A stretch of 64,000 bases of DNA from Spizellomyces punctatus DAOM BR117 (GCA_000182565.2 KQ257457.1); one strand, 5' to 3'; shown: positions 1 through 36,459, numbered from the stretch's first letter. Program-made: numbers and translations. Notes: generated by a model from the letters alone, not told the origin.

Positions 1-2994
1 TATTTGAAAGGCGGCAGCCGCTGTAGTAGATATAATAGCATATTTTCCCATGTACACTGTGCCTTGGACTCCTAATCCACCGGCAACCTGTAATGCACCT
101 GTCGTTGTAGAGGATGCATCATTTGTTGCATCCAGTGTAACGATTCCAGTGTTCGCGAGTATTGTCAGTCCTCTAGCGGTCTGTGCTTGAAGCCGAAGGT
201 TACCAATATCGTTTCTCAACGTCATTGTGTTAACGCCTCCATCCACACTCCTATTGTTTCCGTTCAAAAACATCACTCCATTACCTCCAGAGGCCGTTAG
301 ATAAAGAATTGAACAAGCATTCGTCCCTGTATTAGTATTGGTTACAACTAGTGACCGTAGACCGCTAACAGAATTGGCTCCTCCGACGGTTAGGTCACCG
401 CCAACAAGGCATGAACCATTAGTGTCCACTCTTAGACCTAGAGTAGGCGTGCTAGATGTTCTTGGATAGATAAACATTGGTGAATCCTGAGCACCCAGCC
501 ATGTAGAGGCGGATGGGTTAAAACCAAGAAACCCTGCCCCATCAACCCCAAGCCATGTTGATTTTGAGCCGTCAAAATTACTTGAAATAAACACCGATGA
601 TTGTCCTGTTGCAGAGGCTGTAGTTTGCAGACGTGTGCCTGTTATCACTTTGCCTGAAACATTACCTCCAAAAGTAATATTATTCGAAGTTAATGCCGTT
701 ATCTGGCTTCCAACCCAAGGTTTGATGACTTCGGTATCATAATCCCTTAACATCGAGAGGTTGATCGCGGCTTGGGGGTATTCATATTTGATGGTGCGAT
801 AGCAACTCGGTACATCAAATAGTAATCGAGTACAGCCTCCAATCGGGTCTGAAGCAATTGCCACATTGCTTCCAGGCTCTAAAGGCGGCATGAAGGTAAC
901 AGGGTCGACTGGTTCGTAAACTGGATTTCCATCTCCATCGAGTATAGGTTGGCCTTCCGCATCTCGTTGAACCTTACGTTCCCTCTGACCACCGAAAATC
1001 ATTCCCCAAGGAAACGTTGAGACGATTGGGAGGATGGAGTTTACAGCCATGGGAATCGTCAGTGGTGGAGATACCATCGCAGGAAATGGAATAGTAGTCA
1101 GCGGTGTGGCCCCACTAAGAACAACAACATTCCCACCAGGGACATCAGTTTTTAAGATTTCTGCGGCGTCAGACTGTTCCGTATTATCGGTATCCCTTTG
1201 TTTCGATAACGGCGTAGGGTCAATGAGAGTGAAATTGTACAAAGGATAACTGCCGGATATGAGGAGATTTGGGCTGTTACTTACGAATTGTGGAGGAATC
1301 ATGTTGTACTGAATGGTATTACCAACAACGACCACACTTCCGTATGAATTGGTCGAGCCAACATAATTACCTCTTAAGGTATCGCCTACTCGAAGAATCG
1401 TATCACTTCCTGAAAGCGAACATGAAATCAGATCGCCACTAACTTGCACACCATTGATACCTCGGAGGTTGGTTGACAGAATGGCACCATTCTTCTGGAG
1501 TCCAATTCCCGCAGCGATGTTCGAACTGAGAACACCGTTGTTGAGAGTTAAATCGGGCTGTTGGGCTGTGAGAGATAACCTGAAATCATTTTGCACCCTT
1601 TGGATACCATTGGAGGCGGTAAACGTATCGCCTATGGTCCCGCGGCTGAGCATCATTAAGCCAGAGTTGGCATCAACTTTTAGATCGAGTTGAAGGTCAT
1701 TCTGTACTCTCTCGATACCATTGCTACAAGTCAGTACGTCTTTAATGGTATCTGCTTTGACCATTTGGAGACAACTGCCAGCCTCGCATTTGAGAGAGAG
1801 CACCACATCATTGGTCGTTCCCGGTCTAATGGAGACGCCATTAAAGTCCTGAAAAATGTAGCCACCTGTTAACTGGTTTCCTACAATCCGAACTGTTTGG
1901 TTATCAACGAGCACCCCGATTTCACGTCGTCCACTAAACTCTGGTCCGACAGCAATGGCCCCGGTTTGGCTGCCTTGGTAAAAATTGGCCATGTAATCTT
2001 TACTCACTGCATAAGAGCCTCCTCCAATAGCAGGTAATGTTGCGCTTAACTTTACATTGGGTACACGCAACTCTTGAAGCGTGGACGAATAGGTGAATGA
2101 AGAACTTCCCGAGTAGCCATAAGTAAGGTTCCCATACATGATTTGTTCATATCCGGGTGATTTCAGGGATAATCGAGAGCCGGCTTGCGTGAATGTAGAG
2201 GTGTCAGTCATCAATCTAATCGCTGTCATGTCCACTTCCCCCAGAGCGTCTGTTAGTTCACTGAGAGATGAGAAGCCAAAATCGAGCCAACTGCTTCCGA
2301 TATCTAAGATTGAGTCTGCTCCAGACGATGTTCTTATCGCCCCGAACGCCTTAAACAGTTGACTAGTATTGGTTTCCAATTCGTCTTCATTGTTCACCTT
2401 TAGACTTTTATGAAGTTTGATTCCAAGGCCATTATCCCGATACAATGGTTTCTTGAGCGTTTCTAAAGGCGGAGGTGGTGGAAAGTTTACTGATAAGCCA
2501 TTTTCAGTAATGGATAACGAATCGTCTGCACGAATACCAACTGTGCGTATTTCGTAATCCCTGTAGAGCGGAAACTCATAATTGTCCGGAATCACTTTTA
2601 GTTTTTCTTGTTCTACAGTTAAACATGAATCATCAATCTGAAGTTCGATATCATGATCCTCTTTTGAGTAGACAAGAGGAGAATGTGCGGTTACATCGAT
2701 TGTGGTCAAGCGACTGTCCTCATCAATCTCAAGTCTCTCGTTGTCAACATTTAATCCAACGGATACGACGCCATGTTCATTCGTACAAGGCAAGCATTCA
2801 GAGGTGGTTTCAAAAGAGTTGACTTCTAACTCACCATTCTCGTTTGATACTTTTTTGAATTCTCCAACGGCAAACCCCTTGATCTTGGCTCCTGCATCGA
2901 AGCCAACCATTTCGCCTGTCACATACGGTGACAGTAGATTAGTGTTATCTACTGTTCGTAAACCAGATGCGTTTCGTGAATTTATTCCGCTCAT
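1..2994 (-). CDS. Giant fibre/spike-like virion protein of element A (5' part, runs off window)
   Basis: ATG at 2994 (MSGINSRNASGL...) is in frame with the codons at position 1 (...STTAAAAFQI). Collinear with 28559-31560 of element B. Contains PLYRD..VG..DDSL.ITENGLSV shaft-like repeats and a TNDASSTTTGALQVAGGLGV motif. Confidence 0.75.
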   Translation of the reverse strand, partial: MSGINSRNASGLRTVDNTNLLSPYVTGEMVGFDAGAKIKGFAVGEFKKVSNENGELEVNSFETTSECLPCTNEHGVVSVGLNVDNERLEIDEDSRLTTIDVTAHSPLVYSKEDHDIELQIDDSCLTVEQEKLKVIPDNYEFPLYRDYEIRTVGIRADDSLSITENGLSVNFPPPPPLETLKKPLYRDNGLGIKLHKSLKVNNEDELETNTSQLFKAFGAIRTSSGADSILDIGSSWLDFGFSSLSELTDALGEVDMTAIRLMTDTSTFTQAGSRLSLKSPGYEQIMYGNLTYGYSGSSSFTYSSTLQELRVPNVKLSATLPAIGGGSYAVSKDYMANFYQGSQTGAIAVGPEFSGRREIGVLVDNQTVRIVGNQLTGGYIFQDFNGVSIRPGTTNDVVLSLKCEAGSCLQMVKADTIKDVLTCSNGIERVQNDLQLDLKVDANSGLMMLSRGTIGDTFTASNGIQRVQNDFRLSLTAQQPDLTLNNGVLSSNIAAGIGLQKNGAILSTNLRGINGVQVSGDLISCSLSGSDTILRVGDTLRGNYVGSTNSYGSVVVVGNTIQYNMIPPQFVSNSPNLLISGSYPLYNFTLIDPTPLSKQRDTDNTEQSDAAEILKTDVPGGNVVVLSGATPLTTIPFPAMVSPPLTIPMAVNSILPIVSTFPWGMIFGGQRERKVQRDAEGQPILDGDGNPVYEPVDPVTFMPPLEPGSNVAIASDPIGGCTRLLFDVPSCYRTIKYEYPQAAINLSMLRDYDTEVIKPWVGSQITALTSNNITFGGNVSGKVITGTRLQTTASATGQSSVFISSNFDGSKSTWLGVDGAGFLGFNPSASTWLGAQDSPMFIYPRTSSTPTLGLRVDTNGSCLVGGDLTVGGANSVSGLRSLVVTNTNTGTNACSILYLTASGGNGVMFLNGNNRSVDGGVNTMTLRNDIGNLRLQAQTARGLTILANTGIVTLDATNDASSTTTGALQVAGGLGVQGTVYMGKYAIISTTAAAAFQI

Positions 2995-3056
2995 TTAACT
3001 TAAGAAAGTAAAAATTAAGCTGATCAGCCTCGTGTTACCTCGTGTGAGCCGCGCTG

Positions 3057-3104
3057 TCATGTGATTTATCATGTCCTGGACATGTTAGTCCCCGATCATG
3101 GCTC
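3057..3104. promoter_or_regulatory. Palindromic CATGTCCnGGACATG motif upstream of fibre gene (copy 1 of 3)
   Basis: Inverted ~48-bp homology to 12561-12610; the core also occurs at 9328-9342. Confidence 0.5.
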
Positions 3105-4602
3105 ACATTATCCTCTGTTTCTTCCTCGGTGGAAGTGTGACATCCTCTGCTCCTTTCCTCTGCCTACTTCGAACTGTAGGTTCGACATGAACTGTTGCCT
3201 GTGTTGGAACCGGTGGTACAACATATTCCGCTTCACGTTGTCCTCTTAGACGAGTGAGAGGACGTACTTCGCTTCCCAAGTCCGCAGTCAATGGTACTAG
3301 CGTTGGCGGGTTAAGTGCCATCGGTGCTAAGACTGGATCAACATTGACCCTTCTCCTGCGGGAAGCACGTACAGACCTCTCGACTTCTTCAGGATTTTGT
3401 AACACTATTTCCTCTAGAGCAGGCTCCTCTACATGTTCGGCATCGATTCTCCGTCTTTTTATCGTCTGCTTATCCTCTGGCTGTTTATACTGTCTTCGCT
3501 TGGTTCCGTGAGGAGCACGTCCGGCAAAAAGCACATCTGGGGGACGTGGAGGAGCAACAGGTGGAGGGGTTGCTGGTGGAGTTACCGGCTCTAGATTTAT
3601 TCCTTCTACAACATCATGCTCTGCATCACCTGTTTTTTGCTTCTTTTTATTCAATCGAGGAATCGGTGGAGGCGCATTCGCCTTTCTTTTGGAACCCGCT
3701 AATACGGCTGGTTCTTTACCTTTGAAATGGAATGGTGTCCTTGCAGGAACAGAAATAAACTGTTCATTCACCGAGTTTCTCTCCAAAACATCTGCCACAT
3801 CAGATGGATTTTGATGGTCATTCATAATTACCGTATCGTGAGGAATTGGTGCGCTACGAGGCATTGTTTCCACTGAGGCATCGATTTGAGGAGATTCCAC
3901 ATGTACCTGTGGAGTCGAGCCAGGGAAACCGCCTGGGATAGGTGGAATATAGGCATCGCCCATTGTCATCGCATCTAATGGAACTGCGACACCAGTCGCA
4001 TGATTGACATGGTCATTTCCAAATGCATCTCGTCTAATTTCCGTCTCCCTTGTTAAAATAACAGGTTCTAGTGGACTTGAGTTTACATTTCTTGGTTGTG
4101 CCGGAATTTCATTTCCATTCGGTGGTGCCTGAAACATTAGACCTGTTTGACTCGTAACAGATGCCGGATAGTGAAACACAGTTCCTGATTCATCTGGAAT
4201 TGGTAATCCAGATGTAGACGCTTGTGTTCCAATAGTTAGAGCGTTCCCTCGACGACTGGGGGTAATAGAATCAAGATACTTCTGTTTTTTACGATAATCT
4301 TCCTCTGCTTTAACATATTCAAGACCGTCCTTGTAAGCCTGGGTTGTTTGTTGTGCGGCAGATATTTTCAGAACATCAGAAGATGAGAGTCGTGGCTCAT
4401 ATTTCGGCTCGGTGTAATTTTCTTTAGTTGCTAAATCTTTATCATGAATGTTCCTGTTCCATGAATACACTACTTTTGCTCGGCCAAGGTCATCGACCTT
4501 TGAATAGTCTAGAGCGACCCCAACTTGTCTCTTTTGCAAATTAGGAATTGGTGGACTTATAGCATAAGTATCGCTTAAGTAATTTGCTCTGTAGTACGCC
4601 AT
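3103..4602 (-). CDS. Hypothetical viral protein, Pro-rich and basic C-terminus with NLS-like clusters
   Basis: 499-aa intronless ORF inside the viral cluster, with KRK/KKKQK/RRRR clusters. Confidence 0.7.
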   Translation of the reverse strand: MAYYRANYLSDTYAISPPIPNLQKRQVGVALDYSKVDDLGRAKVVYSWNRNIHDKDLATKENYTEPKYEPRLSSSDVLKISAAQQTTQAYKDGLEYVKAEEDYRKKQKYLDSITPSRRGNALTIGTQASTSGLPIPDESGTVFHYPASVTSQTGLMFQAPPNGNEIPAQPRNVNSSPLEPVILTRETEIRRDAFGNDHVNHATGVAVPLDAMTMGDAYIPPIPGGFPGSTPQVHVESPQIDASVETMPRSAPIPHDTVIMNDHQNPSDVADVLERNSVNEQFISVPARTPFHFKGKEPAVLAGSKRKANAPPPIPRLNKKKQKTGDAEHDVVEGINLEPVTPPATPPPVAPPRPPDVLFAGRAPHGTKRRQYKQPEDKQTIKRRRIDAEHVEEPALEEIVLQNPEEVERSVRASRRRRVNVDPVLAPMALNPPTLVPLTADLGSEVRPLTRLRGQREAEYVVPPVPTQATVHVEPTVRSRQRKGAEDVTLPPRKKQRIM

Positions 4603-5126: not shown

Positions 5127-6491
5127 TCAAACCACGGTAACAACAGCACCAATGGAAAGTGTAACATTCTCGAAATAACACGTCACCATGCGCACCTTTT
5201 GCGTAGGTGCCGTTGCATGAGTTGTATGCACACGAAGCAAACCATCGCTGCCAGTAAATGAGAGTGCCGCATTACTGCCTTCATCCTTTGATGCAAATGA
5301 CCAGCCAAATGAGAATGCCTTGGAATCATAGTCGGCGAACGACATGTCCATATCTCCTAATTGGTCAAAGTTGTTATTTGACAATTGTGTGACAAGCAGT
5401 GTTTGATTATCACTCGGTGAATGTGTGAAGCCTTGTATTCCACTTGGAATGGTCAAGTTCGGGCCGATTTGCATACGCCACTCGCGTAGTCCCTGGGACG
5501 AATACATTAACGCTTTATCTTTTGTGGTATCATTCAAAACGTCGTCATCGATAAAGGACATCTCCACACCCTGGAGAGAGCGAACGCCAGACATATGGAG
5601 CAAGAAGGTGTTCCGGTTTCCGCCACTACATGCATTTTCCGTTTGGGTTGAGCGCACATAGTCATAGAATATTGATTTACCGTCCGAAATAGCACGAGTC
5701 GCGTTGACAACGGTCGTCGGAGGAGGAGTGATATAAGGGACCAAACACCGAATGTTGGAAACCCGAATCTCACCTACACCGGCGCTTGTAAACACTGTGT
5801 TCGGGTCTGCGAGGGTGATAATGATTTCTAACGCCTGATTTGGAAGGGCCCACACAGGGAAGAACTGGTCATTCGATGGATGGCAAAAACCGACGAACGG
5901 GTGGTGATTAATGGAAATGGTACTTGATGTTGCAAAGATGTTGGTGTTTCCATATCCGGAAAGTTGGCTCAACAATTTCTTACTACCGGTGGATAGATTG
6001 CGGTACGTTTGTACTAGATAAAGAGGATAGTTTGGAATGTTAACAACAGTTTCTCCCCCTGCTTTGATGGTTAATGATTGAATAATGGATTCTAAGCCAA
6101 GGTACGTATTTTTAACACCTGTACCAGGAGTTATCAGGTTCCCTGCATTATCGTATGCAGAGACATCCATGGAGAGAATGAGTTTTTGCAGAATGAAACT
6201 CACCGAATTAGAGTCACAAGTTATCTTGATTGGGGTCAGGTTACGACTTTTTGTCGTATATGTGCTTTGACCAATCGGACTATAGATTGACACGCCTTCC
6301 CACGGGGGTCTGAGTACCCCCTCGNNNNNNNNNNNNNNNNNNNNNNNNNNNNNNNNNNNNNNNNNNNNNNNNNNNNNNNNNNNNNNNNNNNNNNNNNNNN
6401 NNNNNNNNNNNNNNNNNNNNNNNNNNNNNNNNNNNNNNNNNNNNNNNNNNNNNNTGTCATTGGCATATGAATTGTAATCAAATTCAACCAT
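5127..6491 (-). CDS. Major capsid protein (double jelly-roll, PLV type), element A; contains N gap
   Basis: ~450 aa and beta-rich, with a GLESIIQSLTIKAGGETVVNIPNY segment typical of PLV MCP N-lobes. Lies next to the minor capsid and ATPase and aligns weakly to 23332-24459. Confidence 0.75.
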   Translation of the reverse strand: MVEFDYNSYANDXXXXXXXXXXXXXXXXXXXXXXXXXXXXXXXXXXXXXXXXXXXXEGVLRPPWEGVSIYSPIGQSTYTTKSRNLTPIKITCDSNSVSFILQKLILSMDVSAYDNAGNLITPGTGVKNTYLGLESIIQSLTIKAGGETVVNIPNYPLYLVQTYRNLSTGSKKLLSQLSGYGNTNIFATSSTISINHHPFVGFCHPSNDQFFPVWALPNQALEIIITLADPNTVFTSAGVGEIRVSNIRCLVPYITPPPTTVVNATRAISDGKSIFYDYVRSTQTENACSGGNRNTFLLHMSGVRSLQGVEMSFIDDDVLNDTTKDKALMYSSQGLREWRMQIGPNLTIPSGIQGFTHSPSDNQTLLVTQLSNNNFDQLGDMDMSFADYDSKAFSFGWSFASKDEGSNAALSFTGSDGLLRVHTTHATAPTQKVRMVTCYFENVTLSIGAVVTVV

Positions 6492-6978
6492 ACACCCTGA
6501 CCATTCGTCCTGTAGAGTCTTTAATGGTTGAAAGGTGCAGGCGCTTTGACTTCGTCCCAGCGCTCCCCCTTTGGGGGGTCGCTGTCCTTCGAACCGCGCG
6601 GCTCACTGTAGCGGGTTGCTTCTTCTTCGGTGCATTTGAGGCCTTTGCTCTCTTCATGGCTCGCTCCTCTTTCTCTTTCCTTTTTCTTTCCTTCTCTTGC
6701 TCAAGAACGCGTTTCGCTTCATCGAGTTTCATCTGCTTCTCCTGCTCTTCCCTTTCCTGTTCACGTTTGGCCTGCATCTCACGTAACTGTGCGGCTCGGG
6801 CCTTTTGGGCCTTCTCTAATGCGGCCCTTTGCTTATCTGTCATTGGACGCTTTACTTTCTGCATAGGAGGTTGTTCTGGTTTCTTTTCTGCTTGTTGAAC
6901 AGGGACTTGTTCTGTGGGTTTTTCTACATTCTCTTGTGGAGCGGCGCTCGATTCTTGATTTGGATCTAATTCTTCCAT
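6484..6978 (-). CDS. Charged coiled-coil/basic viral protein
   Basis: KRPMTDKQRAALEKAQKARAAQLRE resembles KRTASEKQQAHLEKSRENALQVRRE in 27706-28500. Confidence 0.65.
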   Translation of the reverse strand: MEELDPNQESSAAPQENVEKPTEQVPVQQAEKKPEQPPMQKVKRPMTDKQRAALEKAQKARAAQLREMQAKREQEREEQEKQMKLDEAKRVLEQEKERKRKEKEERAMKRAKASNAPKKKQPATVSRAVRRTATPQRGSAGTKSKRLHLSTIKDSTGRMVRVYG

Positions 6979-7015
6979 TTGTTTCTTCCTTACACAGAAA
7001 AAAAAAATCATAAGA

Positions 7016-7735
7016 TTAGACATCCGCTACATCATCTGAAAATGCAAAACGAACCGTTAAGGGACTATTCAATGCAACTTCCAAACCGGTCATCGAGTCA
7101 ATCAGATAGAATTCGATTTTAGATATGGTATCATCTACGGGAAGCCATTCTCCCCCATCATTGGTCCAGGTCACTACATCACCGAAACTATCAGGGACAA
7201 CTGCAGCAACTACAGATTGCGCAGAATCATTGAAGTCACTGAGGTAGCGGCTTCCCTTTACTTGAATGTTACTCGTGAGTAGAACTGGATATGAACCCGA
7301 GAGGTTAACTGGGTTCTTCAATGTTACCATTTGGTAATATCCAGTCTCGGTCCAGCGAGACTGCCCGGTCAAAATGTAGGCCGTAGTTCCACGTGTGGCT
7401 GGCAGGATTTTGAACTTCTTAGGCCCTGTTGCTGCTATGGAAATCTTCCTGCTCACTCCATCATAACTAACAGTATAACTCTGTGTTCCGGCGGCGCTCA
7501 TAGCGTCTGCTACTGCTAATGGGAAGTTTGCAATACTGTAGTTTCCGGGCGCGATGGTTGCATTATAAATCGTACTATCGCCTTCTTCTACAAATGCTAT
7601 AACATTATTTGCACTAGATACCAAGTCCCAATCCTGAAGGAAACTCACGGAGAGCACCTTCATCATCTCCATCCTCCTAGGAGGAATGGAAAATGACCTC
7701 GACTTCAGACTGCAATATGTAATCTCGTTAATCAT
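7016..7735 (-). CDS. Minor capsid (penton-like single jelly-roll) protein, element A
   Basis: 239 aa with TIAPGNYS, YTVSYD and NPVNLSG motifs; homologous to 25213-25956 (IPPGTYS, YTVEYN, NPIDLTG). Confidence 0.75.
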   Translation of the reverse strand: MINEITYCSLKSRSFSIPPRRMEMMKVLSVSFLQDWDLVSSANNVIAFVEEGDSTIYNATIAPGNYSIANFPLAVADAMSAAGTQSYTVSYDGVSRKISIAATGPKKFKILPATRGTTAYILTGQSRWTETGYYQMVTLKNPVNLSGSYPVLLTSNIQVKGSRYLSDFNDSAQSVVAAVVPDSFGDVVTWTNDGGEWLPVDDTISKIEFYLIDSMTGLEVALNSPLTVRFAFSDDVADV

Positions 7736-7776: not shown

Positions 7777-8490
7777 ATGTCCTATAAACCACGCCCAATC
7801 TTTCCAGCGGGTAAGAAGAAGAAAGACAATCGCATCCCAGTTGACCTCGCTTCACCGCCTCTATGTACTACGTTGGTTGCCCCAAGGAAAAGTGGTAAGT
7901 CAGCATTAGTTTGTGGTCTGATAGAGGATGTGTATGCAAAGTGTCATGACAAAGTCATTCTGATGAGCGACACCGTTGAGTATGATGCTTCGGTGAAAAC
8001 GTTGGCTAAAACAACAAAACATGATAACATCTATTCCACAGATGAGGTATCGAATGCCTCTATAGCAAAGATTGTGGAAGAACAAAAAAAAGCACACAAG
8101 GATGAAGGTAAGTCATTATTATTGTTCATCAATGATGCCGGAGACTCGGCTAGGAGTGCCGACTTAAATCGAGAGTTATCTAAATTGTACACAAAATGCC
8201 GGCACTTTGGGATTTCCTTGTGTGTGGCTATACAAAGTGTCACTTCACAGATATCCAGAAAAATGAAGAACTGTACAACAGAATGGATTGTCTTTAAGAA
8301 CAATGCAGAGGATATGAAACTACTCGCAAAGATGTTAACGTCGGCCTACAAAGAAGAAAAAGAGGTATTGAAATATCTCACTGAATGCACCACACAACCG
8401 TATTCATTTTGTTATGTTAACATGGCAGCAAACAATGCTAAGGACATGTATCGTTATTCCGATTCAGAAGGGTTCAAGGATTATTTTTAG
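7777..8490 (+). CDS. A32/FtsK-HerA family genome packaging ATPase, element A
   Basis: Walker A APRKSGKS, Walker B LLLFINDAG (IDD expected), arginine-finger motif KCRHFGIS followed by a Q sensor. Confidence 0.88.
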   Translation: MSYKPRPIFPAGKKKKDNRIPVDLASPPLCTTLVAPRKSGKSALVCGLIEDVYAKCHDKVILMSDTVEYDASVKTLAKTTKHDNIYSTDEVSNASIAKIVEEQKKAHKDEGKSLLLFINDAGDSARSADLNRELSKLYTKCRHFGISLCVAIQSVTSQISRKMKNCTTEWIVFKNNAEDMKLLAKMLTSAYKEEKEVLKYLTECTTQPYSFCYVNMAANNAKDMYRYSDSEGFKDYF

Positions 8491-8504: not shown

Positions 8505-9236
8505 TTACAATGCACACATGATATAGCCCAAATCCTTGAACACATTGATGAAGTCATCACCTAAAGGATAGCTGCGGTCTGAATCATAATAAATAACCAT
8601 TCGACCAAATGGGTCTTGATGTTGTTTCTTTGTAGATGCCGATGCCGGCATTGGCGCTCCGCGCCGGCATGGTTTCGTTTCCCATTGAACTCGTTTCGCC
8701 AGAAAACAAACCATTCCTTCTGTTAACAATCTTTTGGCCCATTTCCGATCCGGTGTACAGGGGGTAATAGCTAAGATTTGCTTCACATTGCCTCTATCAA
8801 TTTCCGAAAAAGCCTTTTCGAAAAACTGTTCGAGGAGGCGGTGCGGACCCTTAATACCGGCTTCCTCTGGGCACATCGCGGAACCGGGCGGGTTCAGGAA
8901 AACTGTTTCTCCTTTCCACTCATTCATCAAAAGGGCGTTGATAAATGTACCATCCTTTTGGTAACCAAAGGTTTTCCTTGCTCGAATGTGGCTTTGCTCA
9001 TTTGAGCACGGGTCTAAGTCAAATATCGGGATGAATGAATGAACAACCTCTGCTAGACTACTGGGGGTGTTATAGACATTATTCACTCCAAGTCTAATGA
9101 ATTTGTTTTGTTCTTTCGCTTTGCGGGACATATTTGGATTTCTGGTTAGCTTGTAGGATTTCTCCATGGAATGTTTTTTATGCAAAAATCCATTCTCATC
9201 TTTTTGACCATGATATGTCAATATCGGCATACACAT
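8505..9236 (-). CDS. Phage Dam-like DNA N6-adenine methyltransferase
   Basis: YNTP...FDLDPCS...W.GETVFLNPPG motifs in the order seen in the phage Dam family; NPPG instead of NPPY/F. Confidence 0.72.
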   Translation of the reverse strand: MCMPILTYHGQKDENGFLHKKHSMEKSYKLTRNPNMSRKAKEQNKFIRLGVNNVYNTPSSLAEVVHSFIPIFDLDPCSNEQSHIRARKTFGYQKDGTFINALLMNEWKGETVFLNPPGSAMCPEEAGIKGPHRLLEQFFEKAFSEIDRGNVKQILAITPCTPDRKWAKRLLTEGMVCFLAKRVQWETKPCRRGAPMPASASTKKQHQDPFGRMVIYYDSDRSYPLGDDFINVFKDLGYIMCAL

Positions 9237-9423
9237 AGATCATCCGTACGTTGAAGCTTTCACTAGAAAGGAAAAAGCCACAGATCTATTAATAGACCTC
9301 TTTCCCAATCCGGAAAAGTGTGGCTATCATGTCTGGGACATGTTAGCTCCATGGAATAACATAAAAGAAGTCAACGAGCCTCTTCCCCTCCCCCCTCATC
9401 TCATTCACACACAATTCTCCACC

Positions 9424-11028: not shown

Positions 11029-11074
11029 TTACCTTTTGACATGAAAAAAACAAATGTTTCATCCGCAGTTCTAT

Positions 11075-11942: not shown

Positions 11943-11961
11943 GATAGAAGTGAATGTGAGC

Positions 11962-16539: not shown

Positions 16540-16540
16540 T

Positions 16541-25165: not shown

Positions 25166-25212
25166 TGCACTTGTTTTTATTTGCTCTCTGTATCTATAAT
25201 ACATTAGAAGAA

Positions 25213-25956
25213 ATGAAAAAGTTGATTCTTGATAGCAACAGGGCGATGAACGGAAACAAGAATGAACCTAAATGGACTCTAGCCGAACCCATCGCATGTG
25301 ATAAAATTCGATACAATTCGATCATTTTGCCCCTTTCGTGGGACATAGTAAATGACAAGAACAATATTGTCTCCTTTTATGATGCTGGGATGGGTAATGC
25401 TGCAAAGACTTTTGCTATTCCTCCTGGGACATATAGCCCTGATGATTTGGTCGATGCACTGACTGCTGGATTTAACTCGACTGGGACACAAGCATACACT
25501 GTAGAATACAATCATATAAACAATCAAATCACAGTGACCGCAGGTACAACACCATTCAAAGTTCTCTACCCTCAAACCACAGCAAGCAAACTGCTCGGAT
25601 TAGTTCAGATGCAGCAATCTGACCCTGGGAGATCAATAACTTTTGCGAATCCAATCGATTTGACAGGTGTTAAGATGGTGCTCGTCTCATCGTCAAACTT
25701 ATGTTCTAACGATGTTGTAGTTGCTGGAGCCGATGATCTAAATATTCTAGCATCGATTCCAATAAGCCAGGAAATAGACACTGTGCTGTGTGCGCAGAAT
25801 TATTTCAATACCAACTTCATTGACACGGAGTCAGGCCTTGTTAGTACCATCAACATCCATTTGCTTGATGCTGAAATGCTATTGCTGATTGATTTACAGG
25901 GCAAAGGGTTCACTTTGGTTCTCGATTGTCATTCCTCCGGCTTTGCAGATGATTAA
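25213..25956 (+). CDS. Minor capsid (penton-like) protein, element B
   Basis: LILDS..., IPPGTYS, ILASIPI, TINIHLLD...IDLQGKGFTLVL; homolog of 7016-7735. Confidence 0.78.
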   Translation: MKKLILDSNRAMNGNKNEPKWTLAEPIACDKIRYNSIILPLSWDIVNDKNNIVSFYDAGMGNAAKTFAIPPGTYSPDDLVDALTAGFNSTGTQAYTVEYNHINNQITVTAGTTPFKVLYPQTTASKLLGLVQMQQSDPGRSITFANPIDLTGVKMVLVSSSNLCSNDVVVAGADDLNILASIPISQEIDTVLCAQNYFNTNFIDTESGLVSTINIHLLDAEMLLLIDLQGKGFTLVLDCHSSGFADD

Positions 25957-26644: not shown

Positions 26645-27664
26645 ATGTCTGTTGCCAAATTGGTAAAACTTTTACAGAAGGGCAACACTGATGTAACTGA
26701 TTACAACTCTGAGCAGGTCGAACATGATGTGTTTTGGAGAGAGAAGAGAAAATGGGTTGATTCAAAGTTACCTACAGGCTATTTCAAGCACCCATTGTTA
26801 AACAAGTATCGTTCATTTGGTAAGGTAGATACACAATTCGTCAGTGACCCATACTATATCGAAATTGATAATAGACGCTTCGGTGAACTAAGGGATGCTA
26901 ATGGCCGGTCTTTGGATCCTGATACCTTTCGGCCAGTTGTTTCAGATGCAGAACTCAAATGGATGGCTTCCGGGCGTTCAGTTGATTACCGTCCCAAATC
27001 TAATCAAGAGACTCGGTATCCGATAATCCATGGTCGCGATGGATACAAAAATGACATAGATTTGAATGCACGCATCAGACAAATGCGCGAAGGTTATGAG
27101 AATTTTATACAAAAGGAGAGGGCTATAGAAAGAGAAAGACGTGAGAACATTGCTAACATACAGCATTTCCGCTCTTCACATGGTATTCACAATCCTGGGG
27201 AGAGTTTGCTAGAAACAACTGGCTTAGGAATGCGGGGCACAGACATTTCTGCCTCAAGAGACTCATTCAATGTACAACGTGGACGACCTACTCCTGCGTT
27301 GTCTGAGAACATCTTTTATGAGGAAGGAGGCACGCCACCTACACAATGGGTTCTACATAGGCAATCTGATTCAGATCTTGAAAGGGGTATAATGACACCA
27401 TTACCTTTATCACCAACCTCAGGCTTACCATCACTAGCACCGATGGATGACTCACCATCTCCGTCTCCATCTAGAACAAGGCAGCCCATGCCTAAACAAC
27501 TATTCAAAAGTATTCTAAAGAGGAACCCTCGAGGCGGTTTCATGCATCCTGTTATACTGGGCAAAAATATGCCCGAGAGATTGCCTGAATTTAGACAAAT
27601 GGTCAAAGCATTTAAAGACAATAATAATCGACCATTGTCAACTTGGACGAATATCAAACTATAG
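26645..27664 (+). CDS. Hypothetical viral protein, Pro/Ser-rich C-terminus
   Basis: 339-aa intronless ORF, possibly a positional counterpart of 3103-4602. Confidence 0.65.
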   Translation: MSVAKLVKLLQKGNTDVTDYNSEQVEHDVFWREKRKWVDSKLPTGYFKHPLLNKYRSFGKVDTQFVSDPYYIEIDNRRFGELRDANGRSLDPDTFRPVVSDAELKWMASGRSVDYRPKSNQETRYPIIHGRDGYKNDIDLNARIRQMREGYENFIQKERAIERERRENIANIQHFRSSHGIHNPGESLLETTGLGMRGTDISASRDSFNVQRGRPTPALSENIFYEEGGTPPTQWVLHRQSDSDLERGIMTPLPLSPTSGLPSLAPMDDSPSPSPSRTRQPMPKQLFKSILKRNPRGGFMHPVILGKNMPERLPEFRQMVKAFKDNNNRPLSTWTNIKL

Positions 27665-27705
27665 TGCTGAAGTATGTTTTTTTATTTTCTATTTACAAAG
27701 CTAAA

Positions 27706-28500
27706 ATGCCTAAAAAAAAGGAATCTATGCCGGCGCAGAGCCAAATGCCGGCAGGCATACCTGACCAGGACATTACAGATGAAGAACAAAGTTTGAATGA
27801 TGATGATGAAACTAATGATGATGATCATCAAGACTATGTTCAAGAACTTGTAAACAAATATGCCGGCGCAGAGCCAAATGCCGGCAGGCATGCCGGGCGC
27901 GGAGTGGCCAATCCCAGCAGGGATGCCGATCCAGGCAGGGATGCCGATCCAGGCAGGGATACCGGAGAGGTCAATACCAGCACTCCCAAAAAACGTACTG
28001 CATCAGAGAAGCAGCAAGCACATTTAGAAAAAAGCCGAGAAAACGCTCTTCAGGTTAGACGAGAACTTGCCGCCAAGAGAAAAGAAGAGAGAGAACTAGA
28101 AAAGAAGAGAAAAGAGGATGAACGGATTCTTGCTAAGGCCGAAGCCCTTAGAGTGGAACAGGAAAAATGTGTCGAGGCTAGGCTCCGCAACTATATGAAG
28201 GACTTACAAAGTCACAAGACTAAAGCAAAGTGAATTAAAATGCCAATACCGAAAAAAAGACGGCAGATTGAAGTTGAGGAATCGTCAGATGATTCTTCAG
28301 ATGATGATGATTATGAGGTTGTTAAAGTCGTCAAGAGAAAGAGAACTCGCCCTGTTCATCCCACTCGCGCAGATGTAGTCCATTTTAAAAATGGACATGA
28401 GTATGTCAGGCACGCAGAACCATATCCCGGTGCAGAGCCATATGCCAGAAGGCATATCATGCGTACCAAACCACCATCGATCTTTGATGAGATTGTATAA
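27706..28500 (+). pseudogene. Charged coiled-coil protein (homolog of 6484-6978) with in-frame TGA at 28231
   Basis: ORFs 27643-28233 and 28240-28500 are in the same frame. Confidence 0.62.
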
Positions 28501-28558: not shown

Positions 28559-31500
28559 ATGCCTTTGCCTAATAGCATTCAAGGCACATATATGGTTCGA
28601 AGAAATTTAGAAGTCCTAGATAATTTCAAGTCCGGAAAAGTTAAAGCCAATTCTATCTATGGAGAGAGCCTACGGAATAAAGATGGTATAGTCACTATAC
28701 TCGATTTGGATAGTCAAACACCAAGTCTCTCCATTCAGAAAAATAAAGGTAAATATACCATCTCTCTTGCCGAGACAACTTATGTTTTTCCATTAATTAA
28801 TGATGAACATGATGTCAGGCTTGTAACAGACGATACTCTGCTTATAACAGAAGACGGCTTATCAGTTAAACCTGAGACACTCCTGCAACCTCTCTATAGG
28901 GCTGCCGACTCATGAACAGTAAGCCTAAACATTGATGATGATGAACTAAAAGTGGAGGATGAAAAATTAACAGTCATACCTTATAACTATGATTTTCCAC
29001 TCTACAGGGATGCCGAATCACGTATGGTTGGTTTACAAGCAGATGATAGTTTGCTTATAACTGAAAACAGTCTATCGGTTAATTTTCCTGATCCTGAGAT
29101 GCTGAAAAAGCCGTTGTATCATGACCAGAGCAGCCTTGGAATCAAACTTCATAAAAGTCTAAAGGTGAACAATAATGATGAATTGGAAACTAACATTCAG
29201 TCGGTACTAAAAGCATTTGGCGCTCTGAAATCGAGTTCAGGTGCAGATACGCTGTTAGACATCGGGTCTTCATGGCTCGACTTTGGATTTGATAGTTTGA
29301 CCGAAATGACTGATGTGTTAGGAGAAGTAGACACCACAGCCATTCGCCTAATGGTAGATAGTTCCACATTCAGCCAAGCAGGTTCGAGATTGTCCCTGAA
29401 ATCACCCGGATATGAACAAATCATGTATGGGAACCTTACTTATGGCTACTCGGGAAGTTCTTCATTCACCTATACGTCCACGCTTCAGGAGTTGCGTGTA
29501 CCCAATGTAAAGTTAAGCGGAACATTGCCTGCGATTGGAGGTGGCTCATATGCTGTAAGTAAAGACTATCTTTCGCAATTTTATCAAGGCTCTCAAACTG
29601 GAGCGATTGCAGTGGGACCCGAGTTTAGTGGAAGATGTGAAATCGGTGTGCTTGTGGATAATCAAACTATTAGAATTGTTGGAAATGCACTCACAGGTGG
29701 GTACATTTTTCAGGACTTTAATGGAGTGGCGGTTCGTCCTGGCACTACAAACGATATTATGCTGTCTCTCAAATGTGAGGCTGGCAGTTGTCTCCAAATG
29801 GTCAAAGCAGATACCATTAAAGACGTACTGACTTGCAGCAATGGTATCGAGAGAGTACAGAATGACCTTCAACTCGATCTAAAAGTTGATGCTAACAGCG
29901 GTTTGGCTATGGTCAACAGGGGTACCATATGGGATACCTTTACAGCCTCCCAAGGGGTAACCAGGATGGGGAATGACTTCAGACTGAGTTTAACAGCACA
30001 GTCACCCGATCTTACTCTAAACAATGGTGTTCTGAGTTCAAACATCGCTGCGGGAATTGGACTGCAAAAAAATGGTGCGATTTTGTCAATGAACCTAAGA
30101 GGTATCAATGGCGTGCAAGTTTCGGGAGATTTGATTTCATGTTCTCTTACAGGAAGCGATACAGTTCTTCGAGTGGGAGATACTCTGAAAGGCAATTACA
30201 TTGGCTCGACCAATTCATATGGAAGTGTGGTCATTCTGGGTAATACCATTCAGTATAACATGATTCTGCCACAATTCGTAAGTAACAGTCCAAACTTGAT
30301 TATCACAGGAAGTTACCCTCTCTACAACTTTACTCCAATCGACCCTACACCTTTATCGAAGCAAAAAGACACGGATACCACTGAACAGAGTGATACGGCT
30401 GAAATCTTGAAAACTGATGTCCCAGGTGGTAACGTAATTGTTTTGTCCGGAGTGACTCCGTTGACCACAATTCCGTTTCCTGCAATGGTTAACCCTCCTC
30501 TTACAGTTCCCATGGCTGTCAATTCAATTCTTCCTATTACAAGTACATTGCCATGGGCTATGATTTTCGGAGGGTCACGCAAACGTAAGGTTCAATGAGA
30601 TGCGGAAGGCCAACCTATACTCAATGGCGATGGAAACCCCGTTTATGAACCAATAGACCCTGTTACCTTCATGCCACCACTTGAACCTGGGAGCAGTGTC
30701 GCAATTGCTTCTGATCCAATAGGAGGTTGTACTCGTCTCTTGTTTGATATGCCTTCATGTTATCGAGGCATCAAATACGAATACCCCCAAGCCGCAATCA
30801 ACCTCTCGATGTTAAGGGATTATGATACCGAGGTTATTAAGCCTTGGGTGGGAGGCCAAATAACTAATTTGACTTTGAATAATGTGACATTCAGAGGCAA
30901 TATCTCGGGTAAAGTAATAACAGGCTCACGTCTGCAATCAGCAGCCTCTGTAGCAGGAGGCTCGTCTGTCTTTATTTCGAACAGTTTTGACAGAACAAAA
31001 TCGTCTTGGCTGGGTCTTGATGGCACGGGCTTTTTAGGATATGCTAGTGACACTGCTACTTGGCTGGGCGCACAAGACAAGCCGATTTACATTTACGGAC
31101 GGACATCTAGTGCAGTATCTCTGGGTCTAAGAGTGGATACAAATGGTTCATGCCTTGTTGGTAGTGACCTAACTGTCGGAGCCTCTTCTGTAAATGGTTT
31201 ATGTTCTCTTACCATAAGCAATTCAAGTACAGGGATGAACGGATGCAGTATTCTTTATCTTATGGCCTCAGGAGGTTCTGGAGTGATGTTTTTGAACGGA
31301 AACAACCGGAGTGTGGACGGAGGCCAAGGTGCGATGACGTTGAGAAACGATATTGGTAACCTTCGGCTTCAAGCACAGACCGCTAGAGGACTGACAATAC
31401 AGGCAAACACTGGAATCGTTACGCTGGATGCTACAAATGATGCATCCTCTACAACAACAGGTGCATTACAAATTCCCGGTGGATTAGGAGTGCAAGGCAC

Positions 31501-34500
31501 AGTGTACATGGGAAAGTATGCTATTATATCTACTACAGCGGCTGCCACCTTTCAAATAAACAATGCATCATTCGGATATACAGCAACAGCAGGTCAATGG
31601 GTAACAAATTCAGTTGCTGGAGACTACATCATTCGAGCCTCTGCTAGTAATTTGCATATCGGTACAAATAATGCAACGGCTTCGAATTTGGATATTCTCT
31701 CATCTGGGAATGTTATTATCAATATGACAACTGATGCTACTTCCTCAACATCCGGCACGTTCCAGGTGAAAGGCGGTGTAGGCATTGCTAAATCACTGTA
31801 CGTTGGAGGGGATGTATACACAAACGGAGTGAAAGTAGCCACGGAATCCTTTGTAACAACAGGATATCAGCCCCTGATTACACCTGCGAGTTCGCTTAAC
31901 CTGAGCAGTTTAACGGTACAAAATTCAAACACCAATGCTTCAGCAATCACACTAGGAAACACTAGTGCTGCACAGACATGGAATATCCATGTGGCTGGTT
32001 CTGCAAACTCAAATCTGCTAACTGGAACACTCAGTTTCTACTCTTCCCTTCAAGATAAGGGGTATGTTTTCCGAATTGACCCATCAGGTAATATGGTCAT
32101 GAGTGGTGGCCTAGGAGTATCAACTGATGCATATATTGGTGGAATGGCTTACATCGGAGGTATTGAAGTCACAACTCAGAAATTTGTAATTGATAACACC
32201 GCTCCAATAAGTCAATCCTTGTCTTCATTGACAACCACAGTTAATAATAACAATAATACCATTACTACTGCACTCGCATCGAAGCAACCAATGAACAGTG
32301 CTACCAACTCCATCTATAGTATGATGGTACAACCTGATAGTTGGCTATATTCTTCTGCTGGAACTACATTCAAGAATGTTACTTCCACTCAAGTGAAAGG
32401 CATCCTCGATATAGCAACCAACGCTAACGTGAATACACTCCTTTCTGGTAAACAGAACAACATAACTACATCAACTAATTTGAGTCTTGCCTCAGTTACG
32501 GCTAGTGGTTATGTAACAGTAATTAATGGTGCCAATCCAACATATATGTCCCTGGTCAACACTTCGTCAAATATCACTTGGGGTCTTCGAGTAGCAGGTT
32601 CAACAGCCGATGGCTCTAACCCTGCAGGTGGGTTCGGAATCAACTGTTCATACAACAACATTGGCTATGTGTTCAAGATTTCTAATACCAGTATTACACA
32701 GATAACAAATACCTCACAATCGACTAGTTCGACTACAGGAGCACTTCTAGTAAGTGGGGGTTTAGGTGTTGCAAAGGACTTATATGCGGGAGGAAATGTG
32801 ATTAGTAACACCTCTGTGGATGCTCCAAACTGGGTTCAATCTAGAAACGTTTCATCTGGCGTTAATGCCTATTCAGCCGTTGGTTGTGCCAATGATAGCG
32901 GAAATGGAGCCTTACTCTTTCTCAACTCTTCTACAAGGACTACAGACAGCTCATTGAATAATGCTACTCTTCGTAACGATTGTGGAGACATGAACATCCA
33001 AGGGAAATCTGGTCTAGGATTAGGTCTACGGATTGTATCCATTTCGAATGAAGTTAAGGTGTTGACTGCTACAGACTCCTCGTCTGCAACAACAGGGGCT
33101 TTACAGGTATCTGGGGGTGTTGGAATTGTGAAGACTCTGTGGGTTGGTAATAAGGTAACCAGTGGAAAAGGGACTGGCTATGGTTTTGGATGGGGTAGCA
33201 TCGGTGGAAATGTCAATACTGGTGACATGACATTCTTCTCCCCATCTTCGAATGGCCAAGCCTTCTTCAATGATCAGATTAACAATGTCTGCCTGCAGGC
33301 ATGGAATACTAACCTGAGATTTGGTGTTACAAATAGTTCATCTCAACTAGATATTCTCTCATCTGGGAATGTTGTTATCAATACAACCACAGATGCTTCA
33401 TCCTCAATCACAGGTGCATTCCAAGTAAGGGGAGGTGTTGGAATATCTAAGAATCTCTACTGTGGAGGGAGTCTGTACTCCAATAATCTGAAAGTTGCAA
33501 CCGAGAGTTATGTAGGGACAGCCATTGCTTCAAAACAGACATCGAGTCCGCTCCTAGATTCCATTAGTGGAGTCACACTATCTGCAAATTCTTTCATTTT
33601 AGGGAGTTCTGCAATGACATTCGCGGTGAAAACTCCTGAAGAGGTGAAGACAATATTAGGCATTACAAATGTCGACCTCTCAGGGAAGCAAAATGCATCA
33701 CCCTTACTCTCTACTCTCGCTGCTATGAGTCCAATGTCTAACATGTTTCTTATGGGGGATGATGTAACGGGGTTTTCCCTTGTGAATGATATTTCCATTC
33801 GAAGTATTTTAAACATTGTCGACTATGCCCCCAGCATATCAGCACTNNNNNNNNNNNNNNNNNNNNNNNNNNNNNNNNNNNNNNNNNNNNNNNNNNNNNN
33901 NNNNNNNNNNNNNNNNNNNNNNNNNNNNNNNNNNNNNNNNNNNNNNNNNNNNNNNNNNNNNNNNNNNNNNNNNNNNNNNNNNNNNNNNNNNNNNNNNNNN
34001 NNNNNNNNNNNNNNNNNNNNNNNNNNNNNNNNNNNNNNNNNNNNNNNNNNNNNNNNNNNNNNNNNNNNNNNNNNNNNNNNNNNNNNNNNNNNNNNNNNNN
34101 NNNNNNNNNNNNNNNNNNNNNNNNNNNNNNNNNNNNNNNNNNNNNNNNNNNNNNNNNNNNNNNNNNNNNNNNNNNNNNNNNNNNNNNNNNNNNNNNNNNN
34201 NNNNNNNNNNNNNNNNNNNNNNNNNNNNNNNNNNNNNNNNNNNNNNNNNNNNNNNNNNNNNNNNNNNNNNNNNNNNNNNTCCTTAAAACGTCGACTCTGG
34301 TAGCAATAGTTGTGCCATCCAATACTTCCAGAATGCAGCAGGTTCTGCTGTTATGTTTTTGAACGGAAACAATAGGAGTGTGGACGGAGGCGCCTCGATG
34401 TTTATGGTGAGGAATGATGCAGGTTCAGTGCGACTGCAAGCACAGGGAGCAAAGGGTATTACTATCACATTGTCGACAGGAAATGTTGTCGTTGAAAGCA

Positions 34501-35027
34501 CCACTCCAGCTTTATCGAGTACAACTGGTGCTCTGGTTGTCAATGGAGGAGTTGCGGTTAATGCACATGTTGTTGCAGGAGGGAATCTGTATTCGAACGG
34601 TGCTGTCTATAGCAATGGTCAGGTTTGTGCTACTCAACCATGGGTTGCCAGTCAAACATTTCTAAGAAATGTTCAAGTTATCAAACTTTTGACTAAAGAC
34701 ATGTGGCAATCCAACAATGCCTCAAAGGTCTTCTATGTTTCGACACCTGGCAAGGTACTTATGGAGTGGACGCTCAACCTCCATGGCACAGCAAACTCAA
34801 ATGGTACATTGTCAATATTTCTCGGCCAAAGCGCTGGGTCGATGCCTCTCATGTACTCGAGCGACTTTAACTTTAATTCGGGAGTCAATCGTACAATCAC
34901 AGCAGCCTTCGTTGTTACAGGGATGGCCGATAACATTGCTTACTTCACAAATTTTAGTATCAGTCAGGCTGCTCCTGATAACACAACTGATGTTACACTC
35001 ATCAAAATAACTGAACTCGGACAATAG
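28559..35027 (+). pseudogene. Giant (~2100 aa) fibre/spike-like protein, element B
   Basis: In-frame ORFs separated by TGA at 28913 and 30596 (the latter is CGA in the A copy). Shaft-like repeats and repeated S.TTGA(L/F).V.GG.G modules; N gap 33847-34279. Confidence 0.75.
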
Positions 35028-35072: not shown

Positions 35073-35381
35073 ATGCGACGCGCGGATATTGAAGGTCATT
35101 CAGTATTGAACATCAAGGACGCTGTGAAGGGTGATAGGGATAAATTTTGGAAATTTTGTGAAAGTATGTTAAGAGGGAACAAGAGCAGGGTAATTCTCTA
35201 TCTACCCCAAACACCTGAAAATGTACATATCTTTCAAGAGATTCTCTCCATCGTCCACTTGAAGAAACTCGACCAATTGTGCTTCAAGCGCAGTGGCTAT
35301 CTCGCTATTCTCAATGATTGTGTATTGTTGGGTCATTCGAGAAACAAACAGCTGTTTTTTTTAGAGATGAGAGTCAAATAG
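35073..35381 (+). CDS. Hypothetical viral protein
   Basis: 102-aa ORF, abutting the next ORF. Confidence 0.5.
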   Translation: MRRADIEGHSVLNIKDAVKGDRDKFWKFCESMLRGNKSRVILYLPQTPENVHIFQEILSIVHLKKLDQLCFKRSGYLAILNDCVLLGHSRNKQLFFLEMRVK

Positions 35382-35382
35382 A

Positions 35383-35778
35383 ATGCATTTCATATCCGTA
35401 TGGTCTACCAAAGATGACTTTATAACCATGTTTGATGACCTACATCAAGGATCATTCAAAAACATGATCAAAGACTTCTCTGATATTCTACAAACAAAGC
35501 AATTCTCACTGTCATTTCAAGACCCTACATTATCTGATACAAACCATAATGGCTTCATAAATTATTCATCTATAGCATTTTTCAGAAATCGAAAGCATCT
35601 TATCACCATAAACCTGAAAACCCTAATGCCTGTCATCAAGGATCCTACGCTAGATAAAAGGGCGATCTGCAAATGCATATTGCAGCATCAGGAAACTCTA
35701 TTGGATATGGATGACCACATTATGAATGTGGGGAAAGAATATGCTCAGTTGAAGAATATTGCTTCTAAAGGTACTTAA
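35383..35778 (+). CDS. Hypothetical viral protein
   Basis: 131-aa ORF. Confidence 0.5.
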   Translation: MHFISVWSTKDDFITMFDDLHQGSFKNMIKDFSDILQTKQFSLSFQDPTLSDTNHNGFINYSSIAFFRNRKHLITINLKTLMPVIKDPTLDKRAICKCILQHQETLLDMDDHIMNVGKEYAQLKNIASKGT

Positions 35779-35816
35779 AACGCATGCTGAATAATCTTCC
35801 ACTCATTATAATAAAA

Positions 35817-36206
35817 ATGCGTGTTTCGATGCGTTGCGATACTTGTACAGGCTTTAGAGAATATCAACTCTGCATATGTCTGAAATGCGCTGTGTATTCC
35901 TGCTATGAATGTTTGGATAAACTAAAAAACTATTCGCATGGTCGAAATCATGCTATCGTTCATCATGATTGTCAACAGTACATATCTACCGCTTTCGCCG
36001 CTCGCTGTGCCAGCATGCATGAAGAAAGAAAACGAAATCCCAGGGCTACATGTAAAAAAGTAGCATCAAAAGCGGCGGAAGATGCCGGCGCAGATGTAGT
36101 CCATTTGAAGAATGGACATGAGGATGCCGGCAGGCATGCCGGGCGTGGAGCGGCCAATCCTGGCTGGTATGCCTCAAAGGTAATGTTGAGATGGGATGAG
36201 TTCTGA
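35817..36206 (+). CDS. Cys/His-rich Zn-finger-like protein ending inside the right TIR
   Basis: CDTC-x9-CLKC-x4-CYEC...H..H. Confidence 0.55.
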   Translation: MRVSMRCDTCTGFREYQLCICLKCAVYSCYECLDKLKNYSHGRNHAIVHHDCQQYISTAFAARCASMHEERKRNPRATCKKVASKAAEDAGADVVHLKNGHEDAGRHAGRGAANPGWYASKVMLRWDEF

Positions 36207-36459
36207 TGCCTGAGTTGCCTACATCTTCTGTGGATTTTTGTGTAAACAAGGAAACCAATGTTGCCATTTAAACATGTGGATATTTCTATTCTTTTTGCAA
36301 TCTTGCTAGGAAAATGGGGACAATTCTCATCCCTACATGTCTCTACATAATTTTTTACTTTCCATAAGCTTCCAATTTTTACCATTGGTTTTATCCTGTG
36401 GCACTTTTTCCCTGGGAATATTTTTGATGAAATTGTCTCAAAGTGCCTCACTTTGTAGT
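36073..36459 (-). repeat. Right terminal inverted repeat of element B
   Basis: Reverse complement of 15079-15465. Confidence 0.95.

Follow-up and report, generated by a model that had tools for sequence, protein, structure and literature searches.

Two Polinton-like viruses of distinct capsid lineages at one Copia retrotransposon in a chytrid genome

We analysed a stretch of 64,000 nt from the genome of the chytrid fungus Spizellomyces punctatus DAOM BR117 (GCA_000182565.2, KQ257457.1; the window, with positions counted from its first nucleotide), in which two Polinton-like viruses (PLVs), here called elements A and B, lie against the pieces of a Ty1/Copia retrotransposon. Positions 1-37190 fall into four blocks: the virus-like element A (1-13509), a minus-strand piece of Copia (13510-15078), the virus-like element B (15079-36459) and the start of the same Copia (36460-37190). 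B measures 21,381 bp. At least 13.5 kb of A is in view, its left end being beyond the window, and 1,570 bp separate the visible tip of A from B. Five N runs interrupt the window (6325-6454, 17143-17284, 18755-19422, 22441-23181 and 33847-34279); they account for 130 nt of A and 1,984 nt of B. The features of the locus are given in Table 1. We also compared the window with contigs from public sequencing runs, X1, X2 and X3 being three runs of one sample. Statements about contigs rest on the contigs listed in that comparison, and stretches without contig cover carry no evidential meaning.

We observed that B is a canonical insertion, with terminal inverted repeats (TIRs) and a target-site duplication (TSD), in the gag gene of Copia. 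The repeat finder returned two arms of 388 nt (15078-15465 and 36073-36460) that differ at 6 of 388 positions, all of them transitions; with the element taken as 15079-36459, a copy of CTCCTG adjoins each end. The gag frame is unbroken over the empty site (...LVVSLEAR, one codon (x), then DSLTLEFLTSRLLHEE..., each side translated separately). The empty site itself is present in other Copia copies: in three contigs of X1, two of X2 and three of X3, position 15078 is followed directly by GCCTCCAAAGACA, the sequence that comes after 36465. Because the 6-bp duplication matches and the gag frame is restored, a misassembly or misjoin would not yield the junctions of B. One X2 contig pairs a B-type TIR with a different flank, and therefore B-type elements are also present elsewhere. 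B has every part of the combination by which Polintons/Mavericks are defined in Bellas and Sommaruga 2021 (PMC7805220): a protein-primed family B DNA polymerase (pPolB), a retrovirus-type (rve) integrase, TIRs and a 6-bp TSD.

B is a decayed provirus, as seen from frameshifts in its major capsid protein (MCP) and PolB genes, a truncated MCP and in-frame stops in the fibre gene. The PolB gene contains two of the N runs (17143-17284 and 18755-19422) and a frameshift at a T run (18710-18713). The MCP gene has a 1-nt frameshift near 23961 and stops at ...KHWS, ∼90 residues short, after which a stray Copia fragment follows. The fibre gene has stops at 28913-28915 and 30596-30598 and includes the N run at 33847-34279. 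On the other hand, all large open reading frames (ORFs) of A in view are open.

The fold of the MCPs was examined by modelling. The A MCP was modelled with AlphaFold2 (AF2) from the 398 amino acids after the N run and an alignment of 13 sequences (predicted local distance difference test, pLDDT, 75.3; predicted template modelling score, pTM, 0.77). Foldseek comparison of this model with the PDB gave PBCV-1 Vp54 (E = 3e-13; template modelling (TM) score 0.62-0.67), as well as the Sputnik, PRD1 P3 and mavirus capsid proteins, and comparison with BFVD gave MCP models of giant viruses, adomaviruses and 'MELD virus sp.'. Since the B MCP is broken, its fold was tested through P0023, a full-length homologue with 78% identity, using a 42-sequence alignment; the model is a double jelly roll (pLDDT 82.4, pTM 0.83) with PBCV-1 as the top match (E = 3e-17). 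On these models both MCPs are predicted to be PBCV-1-like double jelly rolls, that of B by way of P0023. The likeness to double jelly-roll capsid proteins, PBCV-1 Vp54 among them (PDB 8h2i, 6ncl, 3kk5 and 5tiq; TM 0.56-0.67, E = 3e-13 to 3e-17) comes with only 8-12% sequence identity, and is a match of fold, not family membership. The initial annotation, made by a model from the sequence alone, had staked its reading on MCPs of this fold, and modelling returned it.

The other capsid-module proteins were assigned by homology. The predicted penton of A has 66% identity to 'penton [Powellomyces chytrid fungus MELD virus 5]' and 60% to the MELD virus 2 penton, and its neighbours in the ESM Atlas are viral DUF5901 clusters (0.97-0.98). 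The packaging ATPase of B, which has the motifs GARFCGKM (Walker A) and LLLIIDD (Walker B), was recognised by Pox_A32; that of A has no Pfam match of its own at E ≤ 0.01 and was recognised by its homology to B and its Walker A motif.

We next compared A with B. The ATPases are 24% identical (E = 2e-12) and the pentons 30% identical (E = 2e-16), and BLASTP gives no significant match between the MCPs. A profile comparison of the two MCPs gave E = 2.7e-4 over 291 collinear columns, at a probability of only 41%. A profile search with the B-type MCPs collected 66 proteins (E ≤ 1e-3); leaving aside the first, 38 of the remaining 65 match both the A and the B families (BLASTP E ≤ 1e-5). In a tree of 66 MCP rows (with P0034-P0094 limited to proteins of 380-480 amino acids, and with 10 of the 21 A-family and six of the eight B-family matches), the A-type clade (11 of 11 rows) and the B-type clade (six of six) each had a support of 100 in the Shimodaira-Hasegawa-like approximate likelihood ratio test (SH-aLRT), and the branch separating them had 99. 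Each type is closer to other proteins of the tree than to the other type. By these sequence comparisons, A and B represent two lineages of one MCP superfamily. The claim of two distinct PLVs with separate capsid modules in a fungal genome, and that of weak similarity outside the fibre, both made in the initial annotation, thus stand with the MCP clades, the pentons and the ATPases. The charged proteins (A 6484-7023, B 27706-28233) are 43% identical over 60 amino acids (E = 1e-4), in sequence of low complexity, and no similarity between the A terminus and the B TIRs was found by self-BLAST. That A and B could be two halves of a single element was considered and rejected, since B is bounded by TIRs and a TSD of its own.

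The fibre genes are the exception. Their alignment reaches the window edge and covers 2,572 nt, with a nucleotide identity of 79.7% overall and of 66-93% per 150-nt window. As the fibres are near-identical in DNA while MCP, penton and ATPase have diverged, the comparison points to a recent exchange of the fibre, the putative host-attachment gene, between the two lineages. The A fibre itself has no Pfam match and no PDB sequence match (0).

We then looked for relatives of the two elements. At 69% identity to 'hexon [Powellomyces chytrid fungus MELD virus 5]', the A MCP, together with the penton, puts A in a MELD virus 5-like lineage. Its search gave 21 matches, comprising paralogues of 92-93% identity in S. 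punctatus DAOM BR117 itself and homologues in Spizellomyces 'palustris', Powellomyces, Phlyctochytrium and Gaertneriomyces; the searches with the B MCP (eight matches) and with the penton (22 matches) add Geranomyces and Thoreauomyces. Homologues were counted in six further genera of the Spizellomycetales. Within S. punctatus, paralogous copies of the A type are located near SPPG_02195, SPPG_08707 and SPPG_07591, and those of the B type near SPPG_05487 and SPPG_07208. No named MELD virus protein is among the eight matches of the B MCP. The order MCP, one gene, penton recurs in at least four other genomes, as judged from locus-tag numbering. No A-type MCP relative was found in IMG/VR (84 pattern matches, 0 confirmed) or in the metagenomes of the Joint Genome Institute (350 pattern matches, 0 confirmed). 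Contigs carrying relatives of the A-type MCP or penton are 13.9-25 kb long; several kilobases of A, with its missing genes, would by this measure lie to the left of the window.

Table 1. Features of the Copia pieces and of elements A and B (positions in the window; strand as + or -, or. where unstranded)
Feature	Position	Strand	Evidence
A fibre, 998-amino-acid (aa) open frame running off the left window edge	1..2994	-	ORF; 79.7% nt identity to B fibre
A 499-aa Pro-rich basic protein	3103..4602	-	ORF; no Pfam match; singleton cluster in protein collection
A MCP	5127..6491	-	Double jelly-roll model; N run 6325-6454 near N-terminus
A 179-aa Lys/Glu-rich protein (putative 'coiled-coil' protein of the initial annotation)	6484..7023	-	ORF
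A penton (minor capsid protein)	7016..7735	-	Homology to named pentons
A packaging ATPase	7777..8490	+	Homology to B ATPase; Walker A APRKSGKS
A candidate N6-adenine DNA methyltransferase (weak)	8505..9236	-	Pfam Dam 1.6e-3, 18.6 bits against cut-off of 28.1; DPC and NPPG motifs
A 474-aa protein: N-terminal domain, acidic DNNG(S/P)SE repeats, C-terminal C2H2 finger	9340..10764	+	Tandem repeat; zf-C2H2_4 7.9e-4, below cut-off
A small ORFs (83, 118, 136 and 162 aa)	10777..13240	.	No Pfam match under E 0.04
A non-coding right terminus, 269 bases	13241..13509	.	Sequence, motif count, DNA fold
Copia fragment: end of gag, protease region, integrase	13510..15078	-	Pfam gag_pre-integrs, rve and SH3_retrovirus on 13326-14411; translation
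B TSD, left copy, CTCCTG	15073..15078	.	Adjoins element taken as 15079-36459
B left TIR	15079..15465	.	Repeat finder
B retrovirus-type rve integrase	15439..16539	-	Pfam rve PF00665, 2.7e-16
B protein-primed family B DNA polymerase	17047..20282	-	Pfam DNA_pol_B_2 PF03175, 2.6e-25; three-frame reading
B small helix-turn-helix-like protein	20645..20959	-	Pfam HTH_3 2.8e-3, below cut-off
Stray 150-nt Copia fragment (5' untranslated region and gag start) inside B	23183..23332	+	98.7% identical to reverse complement of 36940-37089
B MCP	23333..24459	-	Alignment with eight full-length homologues (341-489 aa)
B A32-like packaging ATPase	24518..25204	-	Pfam Pox_A32 5.3e-5, 23.2 bits against cut-off of 22.8
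B penton	25213..25956	+	Identity of 27-38% to each of the 23 A-type pentons compared (E 3e-8 to 9e-21)
B 339-aa protein and 175-aa charged protein	26645..28233	+	ORFs; 26645-27664 without Pfam match; charged protein at 27706-28233
B fibre gene, split into four ORFs	28559..35027	+	ORFs, frame reading, alignment to A fibre
B three small ORFs (102, 131 and 140 aa; the last Cys-rich)	35073..36206	+	No Pfam match under E 0.04
B right TIR	36073..36459	.	Repeat finder
B TSD, right copy, CTCCTG	36460..36465	.	Compared with left copy
Copia gag N-terminal part and leader	36460..37190	-	Pfam Retrotran_gag_2 1.7e-35 on 36438-37076, DUF4219; translation

The Copia that hosts B was assigned to Ty1/Copia from its order of domains, a Copia-type gag followed by the protease region and integrase (Retrotran_gag_2, gag_pre-integrs, rve and SH3_retrovirus), the order that in Ty1/Copia precedes the reverse transcriptase. 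Its reverse transcriptase and RNase H are outside the view, and self-BLAST found no pair of long terminal repeats (LTRs) within the window. The last residues of the fragment at 13510-15078 before its break are ...MSRDV, and it has a single in-frame stop (14583-14585).

This break coincides with the right terminus of A, which has an ordered structure. Two GGCGTTTAAATAT units are followed by four AATAAGCCRG units (13387, 13412, 13433 and 13455; 21-25 nt apart) and then by a palindrome. AATAAGCCRG has five matches in the window, four of them in this terminus, against 0.24 expected, and none of 100 shuffles reached five. The palindrome (13466-13509) is perfect over 44 nt, ends on the Copia boundary and has a DNA fold of -33.9 kcal/mol (z -5.47). 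Homology to Copia starts at 13510, and one contig in each of X1, X2 and X3 runs leftwards from there with other, Copia, sequence. Since these Copia contigs pass 13510 with a different sequence, the Copia integrase breaks off exactly at the tip of A. The initial annotation had placed this end and its distance from B (∼1.6 kb) correctly, and was equally right about the TIRs and TSD of B inside gag. Other contigs in the runs have an A-type terminus that is longer by one repeat unit (∼45 nt, between positions 13348 and 13380), and on account of this additional unit the sample contains further A-type termini.

Taken together, we think it probable that the locus is a transposon-rich patch of the chytrid genome in which one minus-strand Ty1/Copia copy is flanked and interrupted by two endogenous PLVs, with B as a decayed Polinton-type provirus, A as a second capsid lineage near MELD virus 5 and a fibre gene that was recently exchanged. 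Several points weigh against this reading. Of A, a single end is in view, which offers neither a TIR pair nor a TSD, and none of the contigs listed was shown to bridge 13509/13510, 15078/15079 or 23332/23333; the scaffold also has its five N runs. The penton profile has no Pfam match and only two chance-level ones in the PDB, which leaves penton identity to sequence homology. The Walker A motif of the B ATPase ends in M where S/T is usual, which may be further decay or a trait of the lineage. An adenain/Ulp1-type protease, a point in which B may differ from Polintons/Mavericks, was not found: none of 18 B ORF pieces matches a Pfam peptidase family, with 1,984 nt of B being N. Finally, the stray Copia fragment at 23183-23332, which has the N run 22441-23181 on one side and the truncated MCP on the other, has an orientation and a break point that misfit a simple insertion of an LTR element. 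In the runs, contigs have ordinary Copia on either side of this sequence, and the fragment may reflect a rearrangement or an artefact of the contig end.

With a single A/Copia junction in view, the nesting of A in the same Copia is unproven. We favour the view that the junction is a genuine insertion, the other end of A and its replication and integration genes being to the left of the window. It is possible, though in our judgement rather unlikely, that the junction is instead an illegitimate breakpoint made by deletion or end-joining, with the 22-nt inverted duplication at the tip as a by-product of repair and with A perhaps truncated on its right. The right arm of the palindrome is neither Copia sequence nor required for coding, no TSD can be checked for A, and the patch has other rearranged Copia pieces (23183-23332 and 37906-38148), all of which would suit such an event. 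However, the junction comes directly after four to five AATAAGCCRG repeats set in order at a spacing of 21-25 nt; the last of them forms the palindrome arm, and this arrangement looks like a natural end or origin. The tip of A also reads 5'-TG...CA-3', and ends of this kind are typical of many integrase substrates.

An assembly artefact in part of the locus seems improbable to us, whether scaffold pieces were misjoined at an N run, repeats gave rise to a chimera where a contig ends, or the multiple copies of Copia led to A being placed wrongly beside it. The five N runs, the 150-nt Copia piece placed exactly at a contig end inside B, the lack of junction-bridging contigs among those listed and the word depth in the runs (50-85 for Copia against 0-8 for the viral parts, depth not being copy number) could all be read in its favour, but the B junctions have a matching 6-bp duplication with one continuous gag frame, and no N run is near 13510. 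We consider it very unlikely that A truly has no replicase and integrase of its own and relies on B-type elements or a giant virus as its helper, in the manner of virophage-like PLVs. In keeping with the absence of a pPolB or integrase of A from the part in view, already stated in the initial annotation, Pfam scans of 12 different ORF pieces of A gave no domain of a polymerase, helicase, primase or integrase at E ≤ 0.01, and A and B have host and fibre in common. Against such dependence, the left part of A is unseen, and its termini are unlike the TIRs of B, for which reason the B integrase would not obviously act on them. The Powellomyces MELD viruses, moreover, have varied replicases of their own according to Starrett et al. 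2021 (PMC8502044).

On the favoured reading, the rve integrase of B most likely joined a linear genome with TIR ends into Copia gag via a 6-bp staggered cut; the product of this step is present in the window, and the enzyme is our presumption. Replication of B would have been primed by protein through its pPolB, judging from the family. B would then have decayed inside the repeat-rich patch, by the damage to its MCP, PolB and fibre genes. In A, a natural, structured genome end of iterated short repeats and a terminal palindrome would be joined to a truncated Copia integrase, and its genes for replication and integration most likely lie to the left of the window. A bolder proposal, to which we give little credence, is that A-type chytrid PLVs have hairpin (covalently closed) or palindromic telomeres with iterated binding sites, the 44-nt palindrome being an unfolded hairpin end, and that both lineages prefer Copia/heterochromatin while trading one fibre gene. 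If true, neither a protein-primed polymerase nor an rve integrase would be needed for A-type PLVs to replicate and integrate.

To our knowledge, very little is known of DNA viruses in fungi, and sequence is so far the sole record of chytrid PLVs. The locus offers a base-exact integration site for one chytrid PLV, B, and two capsid lineages that coexist in one genome. The fibre they share amid divergence elsewhere would be direct evidence, at the level of sequence, that a host-attachment module moves between lineages in one host. These details, together with the unusual A terminus, are what we find worthwhile in it. As the ORFs of the A capsid module are open, A-type elements are reasonable candidates for a search for virions in a culturable, genetically tractable chytrid.

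The elements are further members of known chytrid PLV lineages and provide a clear example of them, not a new kind of element. The suggestion in the initial annotation that they were probably uncharacterised lineages is not supported, given the closeness of A to MELD virus 5 and the earlier reports. Bellas and Sommaruga 2021 (PMC7805220) described one integrated PLV from the same host species, midway in a large contig and with a new type of double jelly-roll MCP, and named an 'S. punctatus group' of PLVs. That element may be this locus; it is a single element, whereas the window has two lineages. A chitinase gene is stated there for 52% of the 'S. punctatus group', unlike A and B, in which no chitinase or similar enzyme turned up in Pfam scans of the ORFs. 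A 2026 preprint places chytrid A32 ATPases at two positions among PLVs. Starrett et al. 2021 (PMC8502044) describe six MELD viruses assembled from one Powellomyces data set as free linear genomes, which pair similar fibres with PolB or with various other replicases. This pairing of one kind of fibre with differing replicases is comparable to A and B, which have the fibre in common but differ in their replication module; those genomes are free and linear, whereas the elements here are integrated and have flanks. With Polintons/Mavericks, B shares pPolB, rve integrase, TIRs, 6-bp TSD, double jelly-roll MCP, putative penton and A32-like ATPase, but its MCP falls in the chytrid PLV superfamily and would stand apart from animal Polinton MCPs. 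The Cafeteria genome described in Hackl et al. 2021 (PMC8547959) has endogenous virophages and retrotransposons together, as is the case here; in the window, though, the virus is inside the retrotransposon, and the sole retroelement piece in a virus is the 150-nt fragment. Within a limited search of open-access text, we came across no earlier account of a pair of such elements at a single Copia.

Some further features of the elements deserve mention. The 474-aa protein of A has at 10144-10463 a tandem coding repeat with units of 30-36 nt, which encodes an acidic DNNG(S/P)SE(D/E) array directly upstream of the C2H2 finger. Residues 1-268 of this protein have Atlas neighbours with tyrosine-recombinase-related domains, at scores of only 0.87-0.88, and a relation to tyrosine recombinases may be taken as a lead only. 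The small ORFs to its right probably belong to A, judging from position and low word depth. An exact-sequence look-up in the protein collection found one of 10 window ORFs, the 499-aa protein of A. An OTU-like motif was suspected in the N-terminus of the B PolB and was dropped, having no support in Pfam or in a PDB sequence search (two chance-level matches only for the N-terminal 286 amino acids). A short GC-rich repeat (ATGCCGGCAGGCATGCC-like) recurs in B (27726-27954, 28423-28467, 21449-21494, 15365-15414 and 36124-36173); it sits in both TIRs and in coding parts of three ORFs, where it encodes peptides of the MPAGIP/MPEGMP type. A promoter-like ACATAAAGG-like motif was sighted by eye upstream of several A and B genes, and we make no claim for it.

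Outside the four blocks, a plus-strand stretch at 37906-38148 resembles the C-terminal end of Copia pol (...ADILTEILPKVKDL...) in the orientation opposite to the main Copia, and would be a second, degraded Copia remnant. Matches in a rhizosphere metagenome run (X9) were confined to the Copia part, along with sequence of other organisms, and are uninformative on the viruses. No tRNA genes were found in 1-40200. Host genes, as read by eye, begin at ∼40.1 kb. They include pentatricopeptide repeat (PPR)-like proteins (40188-42884 and 49230-50804), PAS and response-regulator-like pieces of a histidine kinase (55628-58257), a Bin3/MePCE-like methyltransferase (58779-59900) and a pre-SET/SET-like ORF (61623-62222).

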